Translations under genes and position numbers: made by a program
The notes under the pieces: model-generated
What the model was told of the DNA's origin: nothing
The model's input: only the letters and a program-made list of their open reading frames with translations
Databases searched by the model: none
Shown: one piece after another, positions 31,369-52,645 of the stretch
Position numbering within the stretch: the stretch's first letter is position 1
How the letters are laid out: each line of letters starts with the position of its first letter
From: Escherichia coli
Lineage (GTDB): Bacteria > Pseudomonadota > Gammaproteobacteria > Enterobacterales > Enterobacteriaceae
NCBI RefSeq assembly: GCF_965641715.1
Contig: NZ_OZ282453.1
Reading direction: 5' to 3' (one strand)
Length of the DNA stretch: 64,000 nucleotides

Positions 31369-32374
31369 AACGGTAAACAGGGCTGGTAACGCCGTGCAAA
31401 AAAATGGCGATACTTTGTCCGGTGGGCTTACTTTTGAAAATGACTCAATCCTTGCCTGGATTCGAAATACTGACTGGGCGAAGATTGGATTTAAAAATGA
31501 TGCCGATGGTGACACTGATTCATACATGTGGTTTGAGACAGGCGACAACGGCAATGAATATTTCAAATGGAGAAGCAAACAAAGCACCACAACAAAAGAC
31601 CTGATGAATCTTAAATGGGATGCTTTGTATGTTCTTGTTAAAGCTCTTTTCAGCAGTGAAGTAAAAATATCGACAGTCAATGCACTGAGGATATTTAATT
31701 CATCTTTTGGTGCCATTTTTCGCCGTTCTGAAGAATGCCTGCATATCATCCCTACACGAGAGAATGAGGGGGAAAATGGTAATATAGGGCCACTACGTCC
31801 CTTTACGCTTAATCTCAGAACTGGCCGCATAACTATGGGGCATGGTCTGGATGTTACAGGAGATATAACAACTAACGCCTGGGTGTATGCAAACAGGTTT
31901 GCTATTAATAGTGGCTCAACCTCATGGATTGATATGCGAAACCAGAATGTCATTTTTGGTAGAAACGCAGTATCAACAAGTTCTGCGCAGGCTTTGTTAA
32001 GACAAGACCATGCAGAACGCAAATTTTTTGTCGGTGGACTTGGTAACTACCAGTTTGGTTTTTACATGATTAATAACTCAAGGACAGCCAATGGCACCGA
32101 TGGTCAGGCGTACATGGACAATAACGGTAACTGGCTTTGTGGCTCGCAAGTTATTCCTGGCAACTATGGCAATTTTGATTCCAGATATGTGAGAGATGTT
32201 CGCCTGGGTACGCGAGTTGTTCAATTGATGGCGCGTGGTGGTCGTTATGAAAAAGCCGGACACGCAATTACCGGATTAAGAATCATTGGTGAAGTAGATG
32301 GCGATGATGAAGCCATCTTCAGGCCAATACAAAAATACATCAATGGCACATGGTATAACGTCGCACAGGTGTAA
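31369..32374 (+). CDS. Alternative tail-fibre C-terminal cassette (silent in this orientation)
   Basis: Frame open from the crossover site; encodes ETVNRAGNAVQKNGD..., parallel to the H segment after its own site, and ends ...INGTWYNVAQV like the expressed fibre. No promoter or N-terminus of its own. Confidence 0.75.
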
Positions 32375-32905
32375 ATGATGCAGCATTTAAAAAATATTAA
32401 GTCTGGAAATCCTAAAACGAAAGAACAATATCAGCTAACAAAGAATTTTGATGTTATCTGGTTATGGTCCGAAGACGATAAAAACTGGTATGAGGAAGTG
32501 AAAAACTTTCAGCCAGACACAATAAAGATTGTTTACGATGCAAATAATATTATTGTCGCCATCACTAAAGATGCCTCCACGCTTAACCCTGAAGGTTTTA
32601 GCGTCGTTGAGGTTCCTGATATTACAGCCAACCGCCGCGCTGATGATTCAGGAAAGTGGATGTTTAAGGATGGAGCTGTAGTTAAACGGATTTATACGGC
32701 AGACGAACAGCAACAACAAGGCGAATCACAAAAGGCCGCATTGCTTTCCGAAGCTGAATCAGTCATCCAGCCGCTGGAACGCGCTGTCAGGCTGAATATG
32801 GCAACAGACGAGGAACGCACACGACTGGAAGCATGGGAACGCTACAGTGTTCTGGTCAGCCGTGTGGATACGGCAAATCCTGAATGGCCACAAAAGCCTG
32901 AATAA
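32375..32905 (+). CDS. Tail-fibre assembly chaperone (partner of the silent cassette)
   Basis: 176 aa, [26 protein letters not shown]...; clear paralog of the oppositely oriented 177-aa ORF. Confidence 0.8.
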
Positions 32906-32933
32906 AAATTAAGGCCCGCGATCGGGCCTTGTC

Positions 32934-33467
32934 TCATTCAGGTTGTTCGGGAAATGTTACTGGCAGGCTGGAGGTGTCTGTAGATTCGACTTTCTGCGCA
33001 TAGAGCATCCACTCGGTTAATTTTTGTTTATTCTCGTCGGAAATGATGCCCAGCCGTAGCTGTGAGTCCCATAGCTGGGTTTTATCCCTAACGAGCTGTA
33101 GCAGGCTTTGCTTTTCATTTTCCGCCTGCTGCCTCTGCTCTTCCTCGGTATAAGTTCGCTTTACCACTACGCCATCTTTGAACATCCATTTACCAGAAAT
33201 ATCAGCCCGGCGATTTGCTGTAATATCAGGAACCTCAACGACGCTTGCGCCTTCTGGATTAATTGCTGAAACATCCTTTTCAATACAAATAATAACGTTG
33301 TTGTGGTCATAGACCATTTTCAACGTATCAGGCTGAAAGTTCTTTTGTTCCTCATACCAGTTTTTCCCATCCTCTGTATAAAGCCATTTGATGTTAAATT
33401 GTTTCGTTAGCTGGTATTGCTCTTTTGTTTTAGGGTTGCCAGCAGTAATATTTTTTAAGTGCATCAT
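32934..33467 (-). CDS. Tail-fibre assembly chaperone (partner of the expressed fibre)
   Basis: 177 aa, [25 protein letters not shown]...; directly downstream of H on the same strand. Confidence 0.8.
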
Positions 33468-33469
33468 AA

Positions 33470-35698
33470 TTAAATACTCCCCGCGTTATACCACGTCCCA
33501 TTAATGCAATACTGAATTGGCCTTGCCTGAGTTGTATCAATTAATTCATCACGGTTTCCGTTAACTGAACCCGTAACGACATAACCTGACCTGTCAGACC
33601 AGCCGGGACCATTCCATGTCTGAACAGATGACAGACCGCCAAGGCGAATACCTGTAATAAACCTTGAGTTACATTCTGCCTGCGTGTATGCACCAACATC
33701 TCCCGCAGAGGGTTTGCGGGTCGTGGTGTAAAACTCTGACCAGTTAGCCTCAAATCCATAACCATCACGCGCTGAACGATAAAAAATACCGCCGTTCCTG
33801 TAATTCACGCGGAACTGTACAGCAGGGCAGCTCCCCGTATTCATATTGAAGTGGAGGATTAATGTCGATGCACCGCTGATATCTGCATCATAAACACCGC
33901 TATTCCAGTTCCAGCCAACAGCTTTATCATTTGCAACCCTGCTTCCTGTTTGCCCTAAAGCAAATGCAGGCTGCTGGTTTTTCGTGTTGTAGTCTCTTCG
34001 CCAGCCAGGAGCATAAGCATCACCATGATTAATATAAGTGAATTGAGCGTTAGAGGTGCCGCCTCCGGTGGAAGTGCTTGGTGTTGTTACACGGATGGTC
34101 ATGGCACCTTTATTACCCATAACCTCAATAACGCAACCTGCAAGATGAATAGTTCCACAGCCAGTATCGGTAATAATTTTATTATTGCCGTATGACCATG
34201 AACATTTGCACATCCAGTATGGGTGATTGAATGCCCCTTGAGAATCCAGCCATTCAATCAATTGTGCCGTTGTCCAGTTCCCTGCCCCTGTACTAATAGC
34301 ACTGTGAAAAGCGCGACATGCACCAATATTTTTTGTGAAGGTATCTTTTCCTGGAATATCTGCGCCGTTCTGGTTTTTCTGTAATGCGCCAGAAGCCTGA
34401 TTTACCGTTTCTTGTAAACCGAGGTATTCGATAACGGCAGCAACGGTCGATTTCGCAAGAATATCCCGCCCGACTTTTGTCAGGGTTGCCAGGCTGGCGA
34501 CATCATTCCCCGTAAAATACGGAAACCTGTCTGCCGCAGTAGCAAGCCCGGCCAGCGCCGTCAGGGTGGCATCTTTCGGTTGCTTACCCGCAAGCGCGTT
34601 AGTCATGGTGGTCGCAAAATTCGGGTCGTTTCCCAGCGCCGCCGCTAACTCGTTCAGCGTATTCAGTGCGTCAGGTGACGAATCTACAAGGGCGGCAATC
34701 GCAGCCATAACGAAAGCCGTGCTTGCGATTTGGGTATTATTCGTTCCCTGTCGCGCAGTTGGCGTTGTTGGCGTTCCGGTCAGCGCAGGACTGTTTAAGG
34801 GCGCTTTCTTGTTCGTTTCATCCATTACCGCCTTAACCGCTTTCGATGTCGCGGCCAGTGTTTCAGACGTGCTGTTGGTGGCACTACTGAGCTGGACTAT
34901 CCCTTTTTGTGCCGTCGTGGCGTCCTGAGCGGTATATTTTGCGTTAGCAAGGTCATACGCGGCCTTTACTGCTTTCGGCGTTGCAGCCTGCGTTTCAGAC
35001 GTGCTGTTGGTGGCGCTACTGAGCTGAACTATCCCTTTTCGCGCAGTGGTAGCGTCCTGTGCGGTGTATTTGCCATTAGCCAGGTCATATGCCGCCTTAA
35101 CAGCCTTTGGCGTTGCCGCAAGCGTTTCAGACGTGCTGTTAGTGGCGCTGCTAAGTTGAACAAAGCCTTTTGCGGTCAGCGAGGCGTCCGGGTGACGTCG
35201 TGAGTGTTCATGCTCTTTCAGTTTGTCATCCACGTAATCCACTGTGGCCATTACCATGGTGTTATCCACGGTAAGCGCCACGGTGGCAGTGCTGGATACG
35301 GTCAGAATGGTGCGAAATGTTTGTGCACGTCCTGACCCTTCGGCAACGGTTGGCTTGTAACTTTCGGCAGTATTGCCTACTGCGATTAAATCGCCGTGCT
35401 CATCAAACACACCAATTTCCCGGATCCAGAATCCGCCCGTTTCTGGAGGAATAACCAGCTCCGCAATAATGCGGTTCTGATGTGTTGCGTCCAGGATGAC
35501 GCGATTAACAGTGTGTCGCCACACCTCATGCACCAGACGGGTCTGCTTACTGTCTGGTGTGGGCAACGTGCCGCCACCGTCGCCCACGGCCATATGAGTC
35601 AGGCGGACAGGCTTACCATCTGGCGCGGCTGCCTGAGCTAATTTTTTTGCACCCGTATCGGTGATAACGGTTTTAAATTTTCGTGTTGTGGTACTCAT
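33470..35698 (-). CDS. H: Tail fibre protein gpH (constant N-terminus plus currently selected variable C-terminus)
   Basis: 742 aa; conserved phage-fibre N-terminus, three tandem 43-aa repeats, crossover site near codon 421, C-terminus ...[12 protein letters not shown]. Confidence 0.85.
34409..34434. repeat. Invertase crossover site, right (gix/hix-like 26-mer, inside gene H)
   Basis: ttcttgtaaaccgaggtattcgataa, the inverted partner of the left site. Confidence 0.8.
34906..35290. repeat. Three tandem ~129-bp repeats inside the tail-fibre gene
   Basis: The DNA repeats encode [43 protein letters not shown] three times with minor variation. Confidence 0.7.
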
Positions 35699-43819: not shown

Positions 43820-45571
43820 ATGATTCAGGACGCTTTTGTGCGCCAGCGTGCGCGACAACTTTACTGGCAGGGTTATCCGCCCGCTGAAATATCACGTCTG
43901 ATGGGAATAAACCCGAACACGATTTATGCGTGGAAAAAACGCGACCAGTGGGATGAAACGCCACCCGTGCAGCGTGTCACGCAGTCCATCGATGCGCGCC
44001 TCATCCAGCTTACTGAAAAACAGAATAAAACAGGCGGTGACTTTAAGGAAATAGACCTGCTGACCCGGCAGCTTAAAAAACTGCATGATGGCCAGCCGGA
44101 TGCGACGGCCACAGGAAAGAAAGGCCGGGCGAAAAAGCTTAAAAATCATTTCACGCCGGAACAGATTGCCGCACTGCGGGAAAAAATCATCAGCAGGCTG
44201 GAGTGGCATCAGCGGGGCTGGTTTGACTCCCTGACCCTTTGCAGGGAAGCCGGGATACGTAACAGGATGATCCTGAAATCCCGACAGATTGGGGCGACCT
44301 GGTATTTTGCACAGGAAGCACTGCTGATGGCGCTGCGTGACGATGTGGCGCAACCTTACCAGCGTAACCAGATTTTTTTGTCTGCGTCGCGTCGTCAGGC
44401 GTTCCAGTTTAAAAGCATTATTCAGAAGGCTGCATCTGAAGTTGATGTGGAGCTGAAAGGGGGCGATAAAATCATCCTCTCCAACGGCGCAGAGCTGCAT
44501 TTTCTCGGCACTTCTGCTGCGACGGCACAGTCCTACACAGGCAATTTTTATTTTGATGAATTTTTCTGGGTCAGTCGCTTTGCTGAACTGCGCAAGGTGG
44601 CTGGCGCTATGGCAACCCTCAGCGGGCTGCGACGCACCTACTTCTCCACGCCATCAACCGAAACGCACGAGGCATACGTCTACTGGAACGGCGACCGCTG
44701 GAACGAGAAAAAGGCCGCGCATAAACGCCAGCGTTTTTCTGTGGACTGGAAAACGCTGCATAACGGGCTTATCTGCCCCGACCGGACGTGGCGGCAAATT
44801 GTCACGCTGGAAGATGTGGTTAATCACGGCTGGAAACACACCGATATTGATGAAATTCGTGATGAAAACACCGAAGACGAGTTCCGCAATCTCTATATGT
44901 GTGAGTTTGTCCGCGAAGGGGAATCGGCATTTAACCTGAATATCCTGATTGGCTGCGGTGTTGACGGATACGACGACTGGAAAGACTGGAAACCTTTTGC
45001 TCCCCGCCCGATGGGGAATCGTCCGGTATGGATTGGGTATGACGCAAACGGCAGCAGTGGAAACGGCGACAGTGGCGCGGTGTCCGTGGTGGTTCCTCCG
45101 GCTGTTCCTGGTGGCCGTTTTCGAACGGTGGAGACGCGACGCGTTCAGGGGCTGGAGTTTGAAGAACAGGCCAGAGTCATTGAAGAGTTCACGTGTCGCT
45201 ACAACGTGGAACACATCGGCATTGATGTGACGGGCGGGAACGGGGAGGCTGTTTATCAGATAGTGAAACGGTTTTTCCCTGCCGCTATTCCGTACACCTT
45301 CACGCTGTCATCAAAACGGTCGCTGGTACTGAAAATGCTGCAAATAATGCGTGCCGGGCGGTGGGAATACGATCGCGCCGAACGCGAGCTGGTCGCGGCC
45401 TTTAACGCCGTGCGTAAGGTGAAAACACCGGGCGGCTTTATCACTTACGAAACGGACCGCGCGAGGGGGATCAGCCACGGCGACCTTGCGTGGGCAACCA
45501 TGCTTGCTGTCATTAACGAACCAATTGGCGGCGAAGGAGAAAACGAGCGTTTCACGGTTATGGAGTTCTGA
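43820..45571 (+). CDS. P: Terminase large (ATPase) subunit gpP
   Basis: 583 aa; terminase ATPase and nuclease architecture; adjacent to the portal gene. Confidence 0.88.
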   Translation: MIQDAFVRQRARQLYWQGYPPAEISRLMGINPNTIYAWKKRDQWDETPPVQRVTQSIDARLIQLTEKQNKTGGDFKEIDLLTRQLKKLHDGQPDATATGKKGRAKKLKNHFTPEQIAALREKIISRLEWHQRGWFDSLTLCREAGIRNRMILKSRQIGATWYFAQEALLMALRDDVAQPYQRNQIFLSASRRQAFQFKSIIQKAASEVDVELKGGDKIILSNGAELHFLGTSAATAQSYTGNFYFDEFFWVSRFAELRKVAGAMATLSGLRRTYFSTPSTETHEAYVYWNGDRWNEKKAAHKRQRFSVDWKTLHNGLICPDRTWRQIVTLEDVVNHGWKHTDIDEIRDENTEDEFRNLYMCEFVREGESAFNLNILIGCGVDGYDDWKDWKPFAPRPMGNRPVWIGYDANGSSGNGDSGAVSVVVPPAVPGGRFRTVETRRVQGLEFEEQARVIEEFTCRYNVEHIGIDVTGGNGEAVYQIVKRFFPAAIPYTFTLSSKRSLVLKMLQIMRAGRWEYDRAERELVAAFNAVRKVKTPGGFITYETDRARGISHGDLAWATMLAVINEPIGGEGENERFTVMEF

Positions 45572-46617
45572 TGAGCAGAAAAAATAAAAAAGTGCGCATG
45601 AGTTCACGCATTGATCTCGCTGATGCGCTCAGGAAAGAATCGTCGCTCAGTGCATTCACATTTGATGGTCCTTACCGCCTGACCGGGCATGACCTGCTGG
45701 ACAATATGTACTGTGCTGATAACGGGCGGTGGTATGAAACCCCGGTGGACTGGTACGGTCTGGCAAGAGCCGCCCGGCAAACGTCCTGGCATCAGTCTGC
45801 GCTTTACTTTAAGCGCAATGTATTGCTCGGTTGCTACATCCCGCACCCGCTGCTTTCCCGGCAGGATTTCTCGGCGCTGGCGCTGGACTGGTTTGTGTTC
45901 GGTAACGCATTCCTTGAGCTTCGGAGCAATATGCTCGGCGAACCACTTAAATTACGGCACGCACTGGCGAAATACATGCGACGCGGAAGCGATCTTGAAT
46001 CATGGTGGTATGTGCAGGATGGCAAGGACGCGTTTCAGTTTCGCCCTGGCAAAGTGTGCCACCTGATGAATCCGGACATTAACCAGGAAATTTACGGCAT
46101 GCCGGAATATCTTGGCGCATTACTCTCGGCCAGCCTGTCTCATTCGGCGGACATGTTCAGAAAACTGTACTACGACAATGGATCCCACGCCGGGTGCATC
46201 ATCTACATCGGTGCAGCGCAGGTAAACCGCGAAAGCATGGACTCCCTGAAGGAAACGCTACAGGGTGCGCGTGGTGGTGGTGCATTTAAAAACGTGCTCA
46301 TTCACGCGCCCAACGGGGGCAAAGAAGGTGTGCAAATTTTGCCGTTCCAGCAGATCACCGCAAAGGATGAGTTCATGAATGTTAAGGCGGCATCCCGTGA
46401 TGATGTGCTGGCTGCGCACCGCGTTCCGCCGCAACTGATGGGGGCGATGCCGGGCGAAAAAAGTGCGTTTGGTGATGTGGAGAAGGCAGCGCGGGTTTAC
46501 GCAATTAACGAGCTGATGCCCGTCATGGAGGCCATGAAGCATATCAATGACTGGCTTGGCGAAGAGGTGATCCGCTTTAACCCTTACGCACTGCTGGACA
46601 CCCAGCCCACATCCTGA
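45571..46617 (+). CDS. Q: Portal protein gpQ
   Basis: 348 aa, start overlaps the gpP stop; P2 Q size and position. Confidence 0.88.
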   Translation: MSRKNKKVRMSSRIDLADALRKESSLSAFTFDGPYRLTGHDLLDNMYCADNGRWYETPVDWYGLARAARQTSWHQSALYFKRNVLLGCYIPHPLLSRQDFSALALDWFVFGNAFLELRSNMLGEPLKLRHALAKYMRRGSDLESWWYVQDGKDAFQFRPGKVCHLMNPDINQEIYGMPEYLGALLSASLSHSADMFRKLYYDNGSHAGCIIYIGAAQVNRESMDSLKETLQGARGGGAFKNVLIHAPNGGKEGVQILPFQQITAKDEFMNVKAASRDDVLAAHRVPPQLMGAMPGEKSAFGDVEKAARVYAINELMPVMEAMKHINDWLGEEVIRFNPYALLDTQPTS

Positions 46618-47141
46618 CGCGCTTCGCTTGTCTGCTGCTTCGCCGGGGCATAAAAAATTTATGCCCCGACTCTCCAGCTCCTGTATCAATCAGATAATTT
46701 CACGACGTCTTCCAGCTTATCGCCATCATCGACGGTCAGGCTCTTACGCAATCCCACCGCGTTGACTGCATGTTCTTGCCGCCTCAGTGCGATTTTGACG
46801 GCCTTATCTGTCACCCCATCAAATCAAAAGCCCTCACGCCTTTTTCACGCTCAGTGTGAGAAATACAGCCATTCTGTTGTGTCGCTGCGACATCGTTCAG
46901 GGAATGCTATTTACCCCCTGAAACGCGGGCTGTTCCCCCGTCACCTGCGCGCAGAAAAAACGCGTTTTTTTGTGCACGCACGGATCCTTGACGGATCCAG
47001 TCGCCACGCGGGCCGGAAGGGTAAAAAGTTGTTCAAAAAAATTGTGCAAATTTGTGCACTATTGTGCGGTGTATAAAATGAAAATATGGCGGTGTTATTA
47101 CTGCCCAACAAGCCGTTATACTTACGTTATGGGCGTGCATA
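46618..47141. other. Non-coding region expected to contain the cos site, plus the promoter of the downstream toxin-antitoxin pair
   Basis: Placed by synteny (P2 cos lies next to Q). Contains a Q-distal hairpin ggggcataaaaaatttatgcccc and three TTGTGC direct repeats at about 47040..47068. Exact cos ends not identified. Confidence 0.4.
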
Positions 47142-47498
47142 ATGGAAATGAATATGAAAACTGTAACTGATGATGAATTTCGTGAGAACCTGAGTGAAAT
47201 TCTGGATTACCTTTCTTCCGGTGGCAGTGTCGTTATCACGGCGCAGGGAGGGAAGGATGTTGTTCTTGCTGGTTCTGATCTTAGTCCTGAAATACGGGCT
47301 GTCCTTGGCAAAACCAAAAAACTGCGGGATCAAATAAACAAAATGAAGCAACCACTCTTAATAAATGCAGTGAGAGATCTGGAAAAACGTCATCCAGCTC
47401 TTGTCGCACAGAGAAAAAAAGGATTGTCTTTTGAAGATGCAATGAAGCGTACAAGAGAAAAACATGCGGATATCATTAAAAAGCTTGAGGATAACTGA
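47142..47498 (+). CDS. Phd/YefM-family antitoxin
   Basis: N-terminal T..EFRENLSEILDYL...VVIT..GKDVVL resembles the Phd/YefM fold; stop overlaps the toxin start (ATAACTGATGG). Confidence 0.7.
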   Translation: MEMNMKTVTDDEFRENLSEILDYLSSGGSVVITAQGGKDVVLAGSDLSPEIRAVLGKTKKLRDQINKMKQPLLINAVRDLEKRHPALVAQRKKGLSFEDAMKRTREKHADIIKKLEDN

Positions 47499-47905
47499 TG
47501 GACATAGTGTTTTTGTCAAAAGAACAAGTAGAACGTATCCATGCTGAAACTTTACCCCAGAGCGGAAATGCCAATGACGGGCTACTTGAAGGTGCTTTAA
47601 ATCGCGTCAGGACACTACACTACTATGAAGGGGTTGATGATATTCATGCTCTGGCTGCTATGTATTTGATTGGTATAGCCAAGGCTCATGCCTTTCATGA
47701 TGGGAATAAACGCACAGCTTTTCAGGCTGCATCAATATTTTTAATGATGAACTCTTCCGAACTTTCAAACTCCCTGCTGCTGGTTAAATTAACGGTGTTT
47801 TCAGCAATGGGGATAGCTACCCTTGAGGAAGTTACCTTTGCTTTGAAATTGCTGTCTGATTATGGCAATGAATTAATCAGCGACTACGAAGAAGATTATA
47901 TTTAA
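47498..47905 (+). CDS. Doc-family toxin (Fic fold)
   Basis: HAFHDGNKRTAF matches the Doc/Fic core motif HxFx(D/N)GNKR; 135 aa. Confidence 0.8.
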   Translation: MDIVFLSKEQVERIHAETLPQSGNANDGLLEGALNRVRTLHYYEGVDDIHALAAMYLIGIAKAHAFHDGNKRTAFQAASIFLMMNSSELSNSLLLVKLTVFSAMGIATLEEVTFALKLLSDYGNELISDYEEDYI

Positions 47906-48071
47906 TGCTGGCATACTCTGTCGTGTTAAGACAACAGCCTTTGCGGAGACAGGGCAGGGTGCCAGACTTGCCCGCAGCGCGTCTGACATGAGCAGTTATT
48001 CATCTTTTTTATTGTTTTTCTCCATGCAGGGCGACAGTGCGCCCCGATAAAATTAAAAGCCGTCAAATTCG

Positions 48072-48407
48072 TCATTCATGCGTTTTTTCTTCATGGTCTG
48101 TCACTTCTCTCCTGATAACTTCATTGCACAAATCAACGCACTCATTGCAGATGTAAACAGACGGTCCGGCAATCACCTTTGTGACTTCGTACTGGGATTT
48201 ATTGCAGAAGCTGCAATAAATCGTCTCCTCACCTGAAGTCCATGTTTTGCTGGTTTCGCCAGACATCAGTTGTTTGAGGTCTTTTTCACGACGAAGAACT
48301 ATCTGGCCACATTCAGCTATTTTTTGGATGTTGACATTTTCTTCTTTCGCCAGCGCTTCCATCCGCTCAATCAGTCGCTGCGCTTTTTCTCTGTCAATGC
48401 GTTGCAT
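48072..48407 (-). CDS. Stand-alone protein carrying a ClpX-type N-terminal zinc-binding domain
   Basis: C-terminal half [38 protein letters not shown] is near-identical in pattern to the ClpX C4 zinc-binding domain; N-terminal 60 aa helical; no AAA+ module. Confidence 0.7.
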
Positions 48408-48470
48408 TGTGTCCCCCTTGTTTATGTTCCCGGGTTAAAGTCATCAGGGCGGATGCGCCCTGATGTTGTG

Positions 48471-48782
48471 TTATTCGGGAAATAACGCCCGGATATTTCC
48501 GGCCATCTGACTGGTTATCTGTGCGGTTGATACTGGCTGTGACGCGGGGCGTTCTGTCCTGGTTTGTGTCACTGATAACGCTTCATCATCAGCCCATGCA
48601 GCCAGTCGGTAAGCCTCTGCCGGATTCATTTTCAGAAGTGCCAGCCCGGCCAGAAAAGCCACGCGTTGGCCGCTTTTGCGCGCTTCTGGTGTAAGGCTGT
48701 CCAGCCAGGCGCATGCTTCACCTTCGTTCTTGACGGCGGCGGGCTTCAGATAGAAACTTATCCGTCTGGTTGGAGTCGTCAT
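48471..48782 (-). CDS. ParR/StbB-like partition adaptor
   Basis: ~103 aa from MTTPTRRISFYLKP...EACAWLDSL...RVAFLAGLALL, parallel to plasmid R1 ParR; directly downstream of the parM-like gene. Confidence 0.65.
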   Translation of the reverse strand: MTTPTRRISFYLKPAAVKNEGEACAWLDSLTPEARKSGQRVAFLAGLALLKMNPAEAYRLAAWADDEALSVTQTRTERPASQPVSTAQITSQMAGNIRALFPE

Positions 48783-48786
48783 TGGT

Positions 48787-49746
48787 TTACTCCTTGTCCA
48801 TTGCGTACAGCCCATTAACCAGAGCAAACTGTGGCACCCCGTCCGCGATGAAAGTCGCATTAACTCCGCAGGCTTCGCGGATAGCGGGTGCCACAATCTC
48901 CGCCCCGCCACCGACAACCATCACCCGCCCGTAACCCGAAAAAACCGCCAGCGCGCGGATCACGCGTTGTTTCAGTGTTTCTTCCTTTTCACGAATAACC
49001 GCCATCAGGCTGGCGTAATGCGCGTCATTGTGGATGTGCTGGCGCAACCAGGCTTCATCATGGCGATGTTCGATAATGGTATTGGCGATGTGGTGACTGA
49101 TACGCATACCGTTAGTGGCCATCACCGACAGTACGGCATCGGCCATCAGGGAAACGCCTACGTGTGGATCGCAAAACACCTGGCTGATACCTGCCAGTTG
49201 CCCCTGAACCTTTGCCACATCCAGTGTGGTTCCGCCCAAATCCACAATCAGCAGGGATTCAAGCGGACTCATGTCAGCCAGTGCTTTAAAGCCAGCCGGA
49301 ATGGATTCAGGCATAACCCGTACGTTACGGATAGTGAATGTTTCGCCGTTCTGGTACTCCACCGGGCGCATAACGTTCGCTTTTTTGCGGCTGATGTTGG
49401 CCATGTCCGGCTGTGCGTTTGTGTCGAAATACTCGCTCAATGGCAGGGTGACAACCACATCCACCTCCTGTGGCGTGATGCCTGATTTGACCAGCGCGTG
49501 ATGAATGGCAATGACATTCACATCGCTGTACTGGTATTGCGTGTCGGTCGTCTGGACAAAGCGATCGCTGACCGGATCAAAACCATAGCGCACGCCATCA
49601 AGCATGTAGTTCGCGGGCTGCGAGCCACCGAACGGCGCAGACCATTCCGACTTGAAGCTGTTCGGGCTGATGGCGTTGCGGCGTTCGCCGTTCTCAGTCC
49701 ATGCCAGCTTGATGTTGGTGGAGCCGTCGTCGATACAAATTTTCAT
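48787..49746 (-). CDS. ParM/StbA-like actin-family partition ATPase
   Basis: MKICIDDGSTNIKLAW...ISPNSFK...YSDVNVIAIHHAL...VMVVGGGAE...LVNGLYAM follows plasmid R1 ParM through all actin-fold motifs; 319 aa. Confidence 0.85.
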   Translation of the reverse strand: MKICIDDGSTNIKLAWTENGERRNAISPNSFKSEWSAPFGGSQPANYMLDGVRYGFDPVSDRFVQTTDTQYQYSDVNVIAIHHALVKSGITPQEVDVVVTLPLSEYFDTNAQPDMANISRKKANVMRPVEYQNGETFTIRNVRVMPESIPAGFKALADMSPLESLLIVDLGGTTLDVAKVQGQLAGISQVFCDPHVGVSLMADAVLSVMATNGMRISHHIANTIIEHRHDEAWLRQHIHNDAHYASLMAVIREKEETLKQRVIRALAVFSGYGRVMVVGGGAEIVAPAIREACGVNATFIADGVPQFALVNGLYAMDKE

Positions 49747-49769
49747 GTCGCTTTTCCTTATGTTGATTA

Positions 49770-49895
49770 ATTAATCGTTTACAGGATTTTTAAATCCCGC
49801 TTTTGCCTGTTTTGTGCGCGCTTCATATATCGCGGCACGTTTTTTGCTCATTTATGGGATTTGTGAATCCCGTTTCTGTCTGTTTTTTGTTTCCA
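49770..49895. repeat. Two palindrome-containing ~33-bp direct repeats upstream of the parM-like gene
   Basis: ggatttttaaatcccgcttttgcctgttttgtg and ggatttgtgaatcccgtttctgtctgttttttgt, about 73 bp apart; the second lies in the 3' end of gene A. Possible centromere or operator. Confidence 0.35.
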
Positions 49896-52645
49896 CTGGT
49901 CAGGCCACCCCGCAGCAGGTCTGCTTTGCGGCTGGCGCGTTCAGTGGTTTCACTGATTCTCTGTGCGTGCTCTGCGTCGCGGATGGCGCGCAGCATGTCA
50001 GAAAGCACGGTAACGGGTGTTTTCATGGTGTTCTGGTCCTGCTGAAGTGTGGATGCCAGGCGTGCGGCGGCTTCAGGGTCTGATGCCCCCAGCTGTGCCA
50101 GATAGCTGGCGACCGGGTTATGGCGGATCTCCGTGCTGCTTACGCCATGATTACGGCTCAGGCGCTGCCAGAGCTGCGTGATTCGGCTGTCCGGGCGGGT
50201 ATCCGGTTTGCGTACAATTTCAAATCCCTGCGGTGCAATGATGCTGCCGTCAACGTACAGACTGCCGCCCCGTAACAGGTGCTGCATCTGTTGTTCACCG
50301 ATATGCAGGCCGAGAGATTCAGCAGACTCCCGCCATTCTTTAGCGAGTAATTCGTGGTTATCAGGCAAAGGCCGTGGCTGTTTGCGGCTCTGTGTCCAGC
50401 TCTGCATTTCATCACTGCTGTTTTTTGCCTGTTTGTCACGAAGCGAACGCATCAGCGCCCGGCGTTCGTGCCGTTTCAGTGAGCGCATCCATTCGTTCAC
50501 GTCAACGCCGTCAGGAAGCTGCGGCCACGGTGCTGGCCGTTCTTTCGACTGTTCTGTCCCGCTGTTGCCTGTTTCCTGTACACGGGGACAGTTATTGCCA
50601 CGAGTCCAAGGGGCGGCAGGGCCGCCCTGAAGGTCAAAACCATTTTCGCGGGCGCTGTCTTCCGTTTCCGGTTTACGTCTTACCAGTTTCCAGTTATCCG
50701 GATGCGTGCACACACGGGAGGATTCCCCGATGAGTGGTGACCAGATCCCGTAAATCTGTACGCTCTGTTCGCCGTAATCATTCAGCTCATCTGCGAGGTC
50801 GTAGGCGGTGCGAATCAGGTAGTCTTTGCGTGGAACAAGTACGCCGCCCTGTTTTTCAATGTAGGTGGCAAAACACCCGGCATCGGCGGCAGCGAGTACC
50901 GCATCCATTGCGTCATCTTTCAGTCGTTGCGGGCCTTCCGGGTTGCGTGCCATCTGGCTGGCAAGGCGGCGCAGTTCACGCCACACCTGACGGGAGGGGA
51001 TGCCAAAGAACTGGAACTGGCGGACCCGATGAAGGCGCGCCCAGCCGATGGCGCGCTCCACACTCTCGGCCATTGATTTTCCGGTTTCGTGGTCAACGCG
51101 TGGCTTGCCCGTTTTCGGGTCGATGCCATCCACGGCGCGGCTGTCCAGGTTCTTTCCGATGTAGGTCGCGATATAGCTGGTTGGTGTGCCTTTTGAGCCG
51201 TCGACATACTCCGCCTTAAAGCGCGGAGTAATATCATTGCCCAGCTCGTGGCGGTCTTCCTGAATGGCAATATCGCGGGTGATGGCCACGATGCTGTCGA
51301 TTTCTTCCGGATGAGCAAAGACCATCATATGCCAGTGCACGGTGCCGTCATGGTGAGGCTCCACCGTGCGGATGCCATACCAGCGAAGACCGTCGCGGTT
51401 CAGTTTTTTGCGGACCGCCGCAAAAAACGTGTTAACCAGGTAATCGCTGGAGTCGCGCATGGTGGCCCCGTTCCATTTGGGATTCGGATGACCGTTCTCT
51501 GTTGTGGCGTGGTATTTTGACGGGCAGGTGACAGTCAGAAACACCGCTTTGTCGCCACGGGCTTCGGCCAGAAGTTCCAGCCCCTTCATGGTGGCCATCA
51601 TTTCTGCCTTACGGTGAACCGGGTTACTTACTCCCGCGTAATACACCGTCTCGAGATCAATCGTGAACCCGTCTTCATTTTCCAGCATGAAACTTTTCAG
51701 GAAATCGCGTGTTTTCTCGCGCTGTGCGCGAAACTCGCTTAACGCGTCCTGGCTCAGATAGGGCGATGTTTTTCTGGAAACCAGACAGGCGGCGCGGAGT
51801 TGTTCTTCTCTCCACTCGCAACGTAACAGCCACAGTTTGCGTTTCCACCATTCTGCACAGGTCAGGCGAAGGATTGCGCCCGGCAGCAGCTCCGTGTCCG
51901 GTTCGTTCCTCTGGTCTTTGTCTGTTGTCAGTGCGTCATAATGTGGAGGCATGGCGTGCAGGTGTAACGCCATGCGGGCCAGCATCTGATACGCCTTCAG
52001 CGTTACATCCATGGTCAGTTCGCCATCGGTCGCGCCAAAGCCATCGCAGAGTTTTTCGAAGGTGCTGCTGAACATCGCCGCCGTCATGGTGGCCAGTGTC
52101 TGTATCTGGTGTTTGTTGAGCTGCGGCAGGTAAAGCAAATCGTCCAGGCGTTCGCGTCCGGCAAGGGAGCGATAACCCTGTGTCAGCCAGCGGTGATCGG
52201 TGCGCTCCAGACGTTCGAATATTTTGCGCAGGTTTCCGCGCGCGTAGCGTTCAGCCTGCCAGCTCTTTTTGCCTTTCTGACGATCGGCTTCCTGTTTTTT
52301 GCGCAGGAAGGAGAGGTGGCGAATAAGCGGATCGCGCAGATAGGACGGCAGCAGGCGCAGCGAGGCCATGGCTTCATCCACCGCGCCGCGTGCCTGTTTT
52401 CTGGCATCTCCTGCCAGTGTGATGGTTTTGTCCTGTTTTTCCTGTGCGTCCAGGCTTTTATTAATCAGGTTGCCCAGCGGCGTTGCGGAGAACGCCGCAT
52501 CAGCCATTTCCTGGCGGTGCTCGTTCTCTACCCGGTAGGCATCCAGCCAGGAGGAAAGCGCGGATTCAGGAGCGGGGATCCCCGTTCCTTCACGCCCCAC
52601 TGCGTGGCGCGGTTGTTGCCAGTCCCTGATGTACTCTGCCGTCAT
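49823..52645 (-). CDS. A: Replication initiation endonuclease (P2 gpA family)
   Basis: 940 aa; large early protein with a tyrosine-containing segment (TSYIATYIGKN) of the rolling-circle initiator type; last gene of the early operon. Confidence 0.75.
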   Translation of the reverse strand: MTAEYIRDWQQPRHAVGREGTGIPAPESALSSWLDAYRVENEHRQEMADAAFSATPLGNLINKSLDAQEKQDKTITLAGDARKQARGAVDEAMASLRLLPSYLRDPLIRHLSFLRKKQEADRQKGKKSWQAERYARGNLRKIFERLERTDHRWLTQGYRSLAGRERLDDLLYLPQLNKHQIQTLATMTAAMFSSTFEKLCDGFGATDGELTMDVTLKAYQMLARMALHLHAMPPHYDALTTDKDQRNEPDTELLPGAILRLTCAEWWKRKLWLLRCEWREEQLRAACLVSRKTSPYLSQDALSEFRAQREKTRDFLKSFMLENEDGFTIDLETVYYAGVSNPVHRKAEMMATMKGLELLAEARGDKAVFLTVTCPSKYHATTENGHPNPKWNGATMRDSSDYLVNTFFAAVRKKLNRDGLRWYGIRTVEPHHDGTVHWHMMVFAHPEEIDSIVAITRDIAIQEDRHELGNDITPRFKAEYVDGSKGTPTSYIATYIGKNLDSRAVDGIDPKTGKPRVDHETGKSMAESVERAIGWARLHRVRQFQFFGIPSRQVWRELRRLASQMARNPEGPQRLKDDAMDAVLAAADAGCFATYIEKQGGVLVPRKDYLIRTAYDLADELNDYGEQSVQIYGIWSPLIGESSRVCTHPDNWKLVRRKPETEDSARENGFDLQGGPAAPWTRGNNCPRVQETGNSGTEQSKERPAPWPQLPDGVDVNEWMRSLKRHERRALMRSLRDKQAKNSSDEMQSWTQSRKQPRPLPDNHELLAKEWRESAESLGLHIGEQQMQHLLRGGSLYVDGSIIAPQGFEIVRKPDTRPDSRITQLWQRLSRNHGVSSTEIRHNPVASYLAQLGASDPEAAARLASTLQQDQNTMKTPVTVLSDMLRAIRDAEHAQRISETTERASRKADLLRGGLTSGNKKQTETGFTNPINEQKTCRDI

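Follow-up and report, generated by a model that had tools for sequence, protein, structure and literature searches.

Known Systems

Diversity in P2-like phages gathers beside cos, in the interval that replication gene A and portal gene Q enclose. This interval was described as a hotspot by Rousset et al. (2022, PMC9122126), with 18,150 loci in 1,650 arrangements, and about a quarter of P2-like phages were found to carry a putative plasmid partitioning system there; the same hotspot was rediscovered in a 2024 preprint. The partition genes of phage P88 were also flagged by Pfeifer et al. (2021, PMC7969092), who suggested episomal as well as integrated states. Here, we treat one such interval, in a P2-like prophage of the P88 type (Xuanwuvirus). 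It covers positions 46618-49822 of a window of 64,000 nucleotides of Escherichia coli DNA (assembly GCF_965641715.1, contig NZ_OZ282453.1), from just 3' of the portal stop codon (46617) to just short of the stop codon of gpA, the gene A product (49823).

The cargo of this interval finds its closest described relatives in the type II partition system ParMRC of plasmid R1, in the Phd-Doc toxin-antitoxin (TA) pair of phage P1, whose Phd is a substrate of ClpXP, and in the zinc-binding domain (ZBD) of E. coli ClpX. That domain is a docking site for several substrates and adaptors, and its residue F16 belongs to the hydrophobic patch where lambda-O, SspB, RssB, and trigger factor bind (PMC7804408).

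Three Probable Modules in One Interval

We consider it likely that the interval is the gpA-gpQ hotspot, proximal to cos, and that its three modules arrived one by one and function without need of each other. These are an R1-type ParMRC cassette, typical of the P88 lineage; a single-gene insertion, on the same strand as the early and parMR genes, whose product joins a helical hairpin to a ZBD of the ClpX type; and a recently inserted, self-contained Phd-Doc pair. Searches with PHROGs, NCBIfam, Pfam (against the five proteins joined end to end), and PDB sequences bear out the five gene identities that an initial annotation had read from the letters alone, and the limits that it gave for the interval are exact.

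The arrangement itself had already been recorded, of course. The initial annotation did not recognize the combination as a described module, but the hotspot and its partition system are described in the text of Rousset et al., and the listed rows of their Table S5 include this very arrangement, in which three protein accessions are those of the window (PMC9122126). PGAP gives these accessions to the antitoxin, the ParR, and the ZBD protein of the window. The systems that Rousset et al. cloned for testing include none of the five genes (PMC9122126). The arrangement is a catalogued mosaic of the hotspot, not a new module. What the analysis establishes is the identity of the genes, a distribution that is nested and yet separable, the boundaries of the insertions, and this prior cataloguing.

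Distribution was counted by megablast against 5,426 complete E. coli genomes. The flanks are matched in 1,445 of these, and at least 80% of the interval is matched in only 17. The interval has the position of the hotspot, with replication gene A on one side, portal gene Q on the other, and the presumed cos close by, and its conserved flanks enclose a gene content that differs among close relatives. In both position and exchangeable cargo it is like the old/tin locus of P2 (PMC9122126), and it is the cargo hotspot between portal/cos and gene A that the initial annotation had proposed. Within this frame the parts are nested. The parMR genes occur in 1,306 genomes, the ZBD allele of the window in 111, and the TA pair in 19, all copies of the last being at least 99% identical. 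About 91% of the parMR-bearing genomes have no ZBD gene, and the rows listed in Table S5 of Rousset et al. hold 43 mentions of zf-C4_ClpX versus 489 of StbA. The TA pair can likewise stand without its neighbors. The genomes UPEC132 and 300444 keep an identical TA pair, while their parM is cut to a fragment of 54 amino acids and parR and the ZBD gene are gone.

The insertion boundaries tell the same story, as seen in an alignment with P88, ES4, FDAARGOS_1077, and AVS0717. The backbone next to the portal (46618-47067) is 95-98% identical in all four and ends exactly at 47067; homology restarts at 47931, 48075, or 48383, depending on the comparator. With ES4, the alignment ends at 47067 and restarts at 47931, which are the two edges of the TA cassette. 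The approximately 140 bp that follow the cassette hold a stub, the degraded 5' part of a gene for 174 amino acids that comes after the ZBD gene in ES4-type prophages; the translated stub '..MSDALRASLAPCPVSAKAVV' matches ES4 'MKEALRAGLAPCPVSVEAVV'. The cassette thus took the place of older cargo, next to a ZBD gene that was there before it, and Phd-Doc is the latest insertion in the interval. In P88, the genes gp17-gp19 share the backbone and the order parM-parR-ZBD with the window, at 95-97% identity. P88 has, however, a gene for 112 amino acids after the ZBD gene, on the same strand, where the window has the convergent Phd-Doc cassette; others also carry additional small genes there, on that strand. 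AVS0717 has a gene related to P88 gp20 after parR and no ZBD gene, so the ZBD gene behaves as a single-gene insertion. The guanine-plus-cytosine (G+C) content steps from 0.40-0.41 in the TA pair and 0.44 in the ZBD gene to 0.55 in parR and parM, in agreement with a mosaic.

Table 1. Features in and around the interval between portal and gene A, in window coordinates
Feature	Coordinates	Strand	Basis and remarks
Portal	45571-46617	+	left-hand bracket of the interval
Portal-proximal non-coding backbone	46618..47067	.	terminator hairpin, small conserved open reading frame, presumed cos
Portal terminator hairpin	46644-46668
Sixth gene, small conserved hypothetical open reading frame, 42 aa	46686-46814	-	PGAP annotation
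Presumed cos site	near 47003-47023		inferred from P88_4B11 record termini
Phd-Doc toxin-antitoxin cassette, self-contained, 863 bp	47068..47930	+	low G+C; alignment breakpoints
Phd/YefM-like antitoxin, 114 aa (118 aa if start 47142)	47154..47498	+	PGAP WP_001561011
Doc toxin (Fic-fold kinase family), 135 aa	47498..47905	+	PHROG 577 2.9e-26; TIGR01550
Remnant of displaced cargo: spacer after ZBD gene and degraded 5' stub	47931..48071	-	96% to ES4
Stand-alone hairpin-ZBD protein, 111 aa	48072..48407	-	Pfam zf-C4_ClpX 5.7e-16; PHROG 6797
10-bp G+C-rich hairpin between parR and ZBD gene	48442..48465	.	no T-run on minus strand
ParR adaptor, 103 aa (Plasmid_stab_B)	48471..48782	-	Pfam 1.1e-22; PGAP WP_000211256
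ParM actin-like partition ATPase, 319 aa	48787..49746	-	Pfam StbA_N 3.4e-81 and ParM_N 3.3e-67
Candidate parC/operator	49775..49889	-	two 42-nt repeats, 73 bp apart, upstream of parM
Gene A replication endonuclease	49823..52645	-	PHROG 91 1e-275; PGAP replication endonuclease; right-hand conserved flank of hotspot

The Partition Cassette

The ParM of the window matches R1 ParM (1MWK) over its full length (7.5e-94), and its motifs for phosphate and adenosine (DDGSTNIK, DLGGTTLD, and GGGAE) line up with the same residues in the R1 protein. ParR also matches PHROG 2515 (3.4e-58), over residues 46-148 of an open reading frame of 148 codons that begins with TTG; that longer frame was rejected as an over-extension of the protein of 103 amino acids. 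A sequence search of the PDB gave no solved structure for ParR. The gaps on the minus strand are 76 bp between gpA and parM, 4 bp between parM and parR, and 63 bp between parR and the ZBD gene. The three genes are thus as tightly spaced, on the strand of the early operon, as the initial annotation had said.

Each repeat upstream of parM contains the palindrome GGGATT-N4-AATCC(C/T), at 49783-49798 and at 49856-49871, the distal copy falling within the last codons of gene A. Of 40 related loci, 39 have the proximal palindrome, although its spacer of 4 nucleotides varies, and approximately 60% have the distal copy. These palindromes look like an operator or centromere for ParR. The cassette is like R1 ParMRC in its full-length ParM, its Plasmid_stab_B ParR, its gene order, and its repeats upstream of parM; unlike it, the cassette belongs to a phage that integrates and that has a rolling-circle replicase. 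By homology to R1, ParR would probably bind the two conserved palindromes, and filaments of ParM would segregate the phage DNA whenever it is extrachromosomal.

A variant of this region stands in the early region of another P88-like prophage (L081 3651-5372). Its gpA and ParM are 97% identical to those of the window, its ParR 56%, and its ZBD protein 35%. These steps in identity place recombination breakpoints inside parR, and the 3' part of parR and the ZBD gene are exchanged together. The second ParR allele retains the 30 N-terminal residues and the C-terminal tail NI(R/Q)A(L/F)FPE.

PLSDB holds a complete P88-like genome, with its integrase, as a circular "plasmid" of 34,461 bp (NZ_CP148288.1, 1-34461) from E. 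coli Z1323PEC0009. It may be an episome in its own right, or else a circle assembled from the DNA of induced phage.

The Hairpin-ZBD Protein

The single gene between the partition cassette and the stub encodes a protein in which a disordered linker joins an N-terminal helical hairpin to a C4 zinc ribbon of the ClpX type (C65, C68, C87, and C90). An AlphaFold2 model (predicted local distance difference test, pLDDT, 79.6) places the hairpin helices at residues 6-22 and 27-48, followed by the disordered linker, the zinc ribbon, and a C-terminal helix. Residues 57-104 match the ZBD of E. coli ClpX (1OVX) at 2.3e-19, and the protein matches PHROG 6797, which has no assigned function, over its full length. 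The clpX models of NCBIfam match in their positions 3-53 only, with 48-49 bits against cut-offs of 359-371. The protein, of 111 amino acids, is not a ClpX; it shares only the N-domain and has no AAA+ module.

The zinc ribbon is the conservative part of this protein. The cores of the phage versions are identical to that of E. coli ClpX at 30-35 of 39 positions, versus 27-31 of 39 between one phage version and another, and the N-terminal hairpins agree at only 13-34 of 50 positions. The four cysteines and F67, which aligns with F16 of ClpX, are invariant in the family alignment. Thus, the window protein is like the ZBD of E. coli ClpX (1OVX, 2DS5) in its C4 core (30 of 39 identical), its four cysteines, and its equivalent of F16; it is unlike ClpX in being phage-borne, in having no AAA+ module, and in its family-specific hairpin. 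A profile of the hairpin alone found 16 matches among 1.84 billion representatives, and all eight of the eight that were read have the hairpin-ZBD architecture, so the context of the hairpin domain yields no clue to function. Recent capture of the host clpX was rejected as an origin, since the gene has no detectable nucleotide similarity to it: blastn at the sensitivity for distant matches reaches 221 genomes, and not the clpX that is present in all.

Relatives of this protein occur in two settings. Other P2-like prophages, from Salmonella and E. coli, have them at 35-73% identity in this hotspot, on the downstream side of gpA, and contain no StbA or Plasmid_stab_B gene there. Small open reading frames between gpA and the ZBD gene in these prophages without parMR were considered as divergent partition proteins and rejected; their matches, where there are any, are to PHROGs of unknown function. 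The second setting is that of D6-type phage-plasmids, which account for 105 plasmid places among the E. coli genomes; the relatives there are approximately 50% identical and often come right behind an Ea22-like gene rather than next to a partition locus. D6 and PhiR41_1 both have the gene in an Ea22-type accessory block that no partition locus adjoins. To judge by sequence, hairpin-ZBD proteins form a small family that does not reach beyond the P2-like prophages and D6-type phage-plasmids of enterobacteria.

The gene also recurs, in both settings, in the company of the gene for 174 amino acids, DUF7446, and Ea22-like genes (L005 2222-3667, L014 6001-7543, L002 5312-6300). This shared company suggests that P2-like hotspots and D6-type phage-plasmids draw on a common pool of small early accessory genes. 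Several databases label the protein and its homologs "carboxylate--amine ligase." This name appears to be a propagated misannotation, since no domain search here supports it. A search of the literature for stand-alone or phage ClpX zinc-finger proteins found no relevant publication.

What might such a protein do? We infer its activity, as we do the other activities discussed here. It would mimic the N-domain of ClpX, competing for adaptors or substrates that depend on that domain, or pairing with ClpX itself. The proposal that hairpin-ZBD proteins are phage mimics of this kind, reprogramming ClpXP proteolysis during early development or in the lysogen, comes from a zinc ribbon that is closer to the host ClpX than to its own relatives, together with the known roles of the N-domain. 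It is put forward tentatively, as something that may well turn out otherwise. If it holds, the effects could extend to antitoxins that are labile to ClpXP, such as the neighboring Phd.

The Phd-Doc Pair

The toxin is the better recognized member of the pair. Doc scores 53.6 bits with TIGR01550 (cut-off 38.65) and matches P1 Doc (3K33) at 6e-13, with HAFHDGNKRTA aligned to HIFNDANKRTA, so that the Fic-type motif HxFx(D/N)(A/G)NKR is intact as HAFHDGNKR. The antitoxin is matched weakly and at its N-terminus, by PhdYeFM_antitox of Pfam (9.8e-5, residues 5-42 only) and by PHROG 375 (4e-5); with TIGR01552 it scores 16.6 bits, under the NCBIfam cut-off of 20.8, and the PDB gave no sequence match. 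The stop codon of the antitoxin gene overlaps the start codon of doc at 47498.

The pair is like P1 Phd-Doc in the fold and catalytic motif of Doc, in the overlapping gene upstream, for a putative antitoxin with a Phd/YefM-like N-terminus, and in its place in a temperate phage. It is unlike the P1 pair in its antitoxin, which is longer (114 amino acids) and weakly Phd-like, and in being a recent and rare acquisition (19 of 5,426 genomes) of an integrated P2-like prophage. By homology to P1 Doc, loss of the labile antitoxin would let Doc arrest translation, with prophage addiction or abortive infection as the outcome.

A related pair lies in a distant P2-like prophage (L080 3825-5372). Here, a Doc 58% identical to that of the window and a Phd-like antitoxin of 132 amino acids, which shares its C-terminal region with the window antitoxin, are flanked by gpA on one side and by a ParR remnant on the other; next comes a hairpin-ZBD gene of divergent sequence.

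Phd-Doc may have a role in defense. Among the defense databases to which the initial annotation had pointed, PADLOC-DB gives only weak Fic-domain matches to candidate families (E 7e-6 or weaker), matches none of the other four proteins, and thus shows no recognized anti-phage defense system in the cargo. In this, the cargo is unlike the old/tin locus of P2: it consists of a partition cassette, a ClpX-domain gene, and a TA pair.

Weighing the Alternatives

Several observations weigh against three modules that work independently. The ZBD gene and parR are contiguous in all 111 E. coli genomes that have the ZBD gene, and this allele is never found away from parR in E. coli. In L081, the divergent ZBD protein adjoins the divergent ParR allele, and a functional tie between parR and the ZBD gene is conceivable. 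Doc-family pairs stand beside ZBD genes in two unrelated lineages, that of the window and that of L080. A promoter scan found no promoter-like site before the ZBD gene or before parM (promoter-like sites are not enriched, with 1 observed versus 3.5 expected); the hairpin between parR and the ZBD gene has no T-run on the minus strand, so that read-through from parR may or may not occur. As a partition system, the cassette has a candidate parC with two palindromes 73 bp apart, versus ten direct iterons in R1 parC, and parMR is chromosomal in 1,451 of its 1,453 places in the complete E. coli genomes.

The tie between parR and the ZBD gene could be taken further. ParM, ParR, and the ZBD protein, perhaps with Phd-Doc, would then be one co-transcribed and new module for maintenance or defense, much as the initial annotation had suggested when it wrote that the three minus-strand genes may act together. 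Their common strand, their short gaps, the constant adjacency to parR, and the paired divergence in L081 all speak for it, as does the frequency of ZBD homologs on D6-type phage-plasmids, which live as plasmids. But the association runs in one direction only. The ZBD gene always brings parR along, and the three genes do co-occur in 111 genomes; only approximately 9% of parMR-bearing genomes bring along the ZBD gene, an imbalance repeated by the mentions in the listed rows of Table S5. ZBD homologs in other P2-like hotspots do without parMR, those of D6 and PhiR41_1 without an adjoining partition locus, and the TA pair of UPEC132 and 300444 without the ZBD gene and parR, which speaks against a module of all five genes. 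The absence of a PADLOC match and the difference in G+C content between the ZBD gene and parMR add to this. A single module is accordingly quite improbable, and the one-way co-occurrence fits physical linkage in one phage lineage.

A coupling of the ZBD protein to Phd-Doc alone fares hardly better, and we regard it as unlikely. Here, the ZBD protein would modulate the turnover of the antitoxin by ClpXP and so set the threshold at which the toxin is triggered. That P1 Phd is a ClpXP substrate makes the idea conceivable, as do the docking of several substrates and adaptors on the ZBD of ClpX (PMC7804408), the two unrelated lineages with such neighbors, and the 17 of 19 TA-bearing genomes that also have the ZBD gene. 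These 19 copies, being at least 99% identical, represent one acquisition, however, and make with L080 only two events. About 94 of the 111 ZBD-bearing genomes have no such TA pair, the pair is intact in two genomes that have lost the ZBD gene, and the two stand on convergent strands; the cassette was, further, inserted over earlier cargo beside a ZBD gene that was already present. The two neighborhoods could hint at a link between ClpX and Phd. As TA pairs are no rarity in this hotspot, however, two events do not amount to evidence for one. The remaining alternative, that ParMRC lets P88-type phages live as low-copy plasmids, with Phd-Doc as the matching addiction module as in P1, deserves more credit than either, while still being the less probable account. 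It was suggested by Rousset et al. (2022, PMC9122126) and Pfeifer et al. (2021, PMC7969092), and it gains from the circular record NZ_CP148288.1, from the close, full-length homology of ParM to that of R1, and from the approximately 66% nucleotide identity of parM to the parM of 1,762 enterobacterial plasmids. Yet nearly all places of parMR are chromosomal, and one of the plasmid places, on inspection, proved to be a prophage inside a plasmid of 129 kb. The phage retains an integrase and a rolling-circle gpA replicase, a circular contig can arise from induced phage DNA in culture, and the TA pair is present in only 19 genomes, versus 1,306 for parMR. Three separately acquired modules remain the likely reading.

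The Prophage and Other Features

Positions 46400-50000 are 100% identical, over the stretch queried, to the chromosome of E. coli RM10740 (NZ_CP043821.1), and gene names and accessions are taken from the RefSeq/PGAP annotation of that identical sequence. RefSeq shows a prophage there, with capsid, terminase, portal, tail, and lysis genes, an early operon with cox and the replication endonuclease, and an integrase adjoining pdxB. The nearest isolated phages are P88 and other Xuanwuvirus of the family Peduoviridae. The host element is a P2-like prophage of this P88 type, and its portal and gpA genes bracket the interval, with cos presumed nearby.

The ends of the linear GenBank record P88_4B11 map to 47021/47024 in the window, and cos is therefore presumably some 45 bp from the variable slot. 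The 19-mer of P2 cos had no match within 3 mismatches, and a candidate picked by eye at approximately 46917-46950 was discarded in favor of the P88_4B11 termini. Approximately 20-45 bp from the presumed end of cos, where the conserved backbone meets the boundary of the hotspot (47038-47067), lies a run of three TTGTGC(A) repeats with a palindrome; the repeats may be a binding site for terminase or a host factor. A search of Rfam gave a sole match, below threshold, on the terminator hairpin of the portal gene.

Elsewhere in the prophage, ISCro1, an element of the IS66 family (tnpA, tnpB, transposase), occupies 31756-34371, between a "phage tail protein" of 425 amino acids and a tail fibre assembly gene. 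The tail fibre of a related phage has 885 amino acids, of which the first 200 or so match. ISCro1 may have truncated the tail fibre gene, and the prophage may thus be unable to form infectious particles. In the ES4 (L005) and AVS0717 (L007) prophages, gpA is annotated as frameshifted; some P88-like prophages are therefore probably defective.

What the Locus Means

Taken as a whole, the locus adds little, since the hotspot, the partition cassette, and the exact arrangement are already published and the parts behave as independent cargo. It is, of course, a clean example of turnover at a hotspot, where a TA cassette of 863 bp replaced older cargo and left behind the stub of a gene and a set of nested breakpoints. 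Why a quarter of P2-like prophages retain an intact R1-type ParMRC while integrated is, in turn, a question that can be tested directly.

The hairpin-ZBD family is uncharacterized, and it is the only part of the locus with real unknowns. Were its members indeed mimics of the ClpX N-domain, they would represent protease modulators of a new class, encoded by phages, and would provide a handle on how temperate phages tune the proteolysis of their host.

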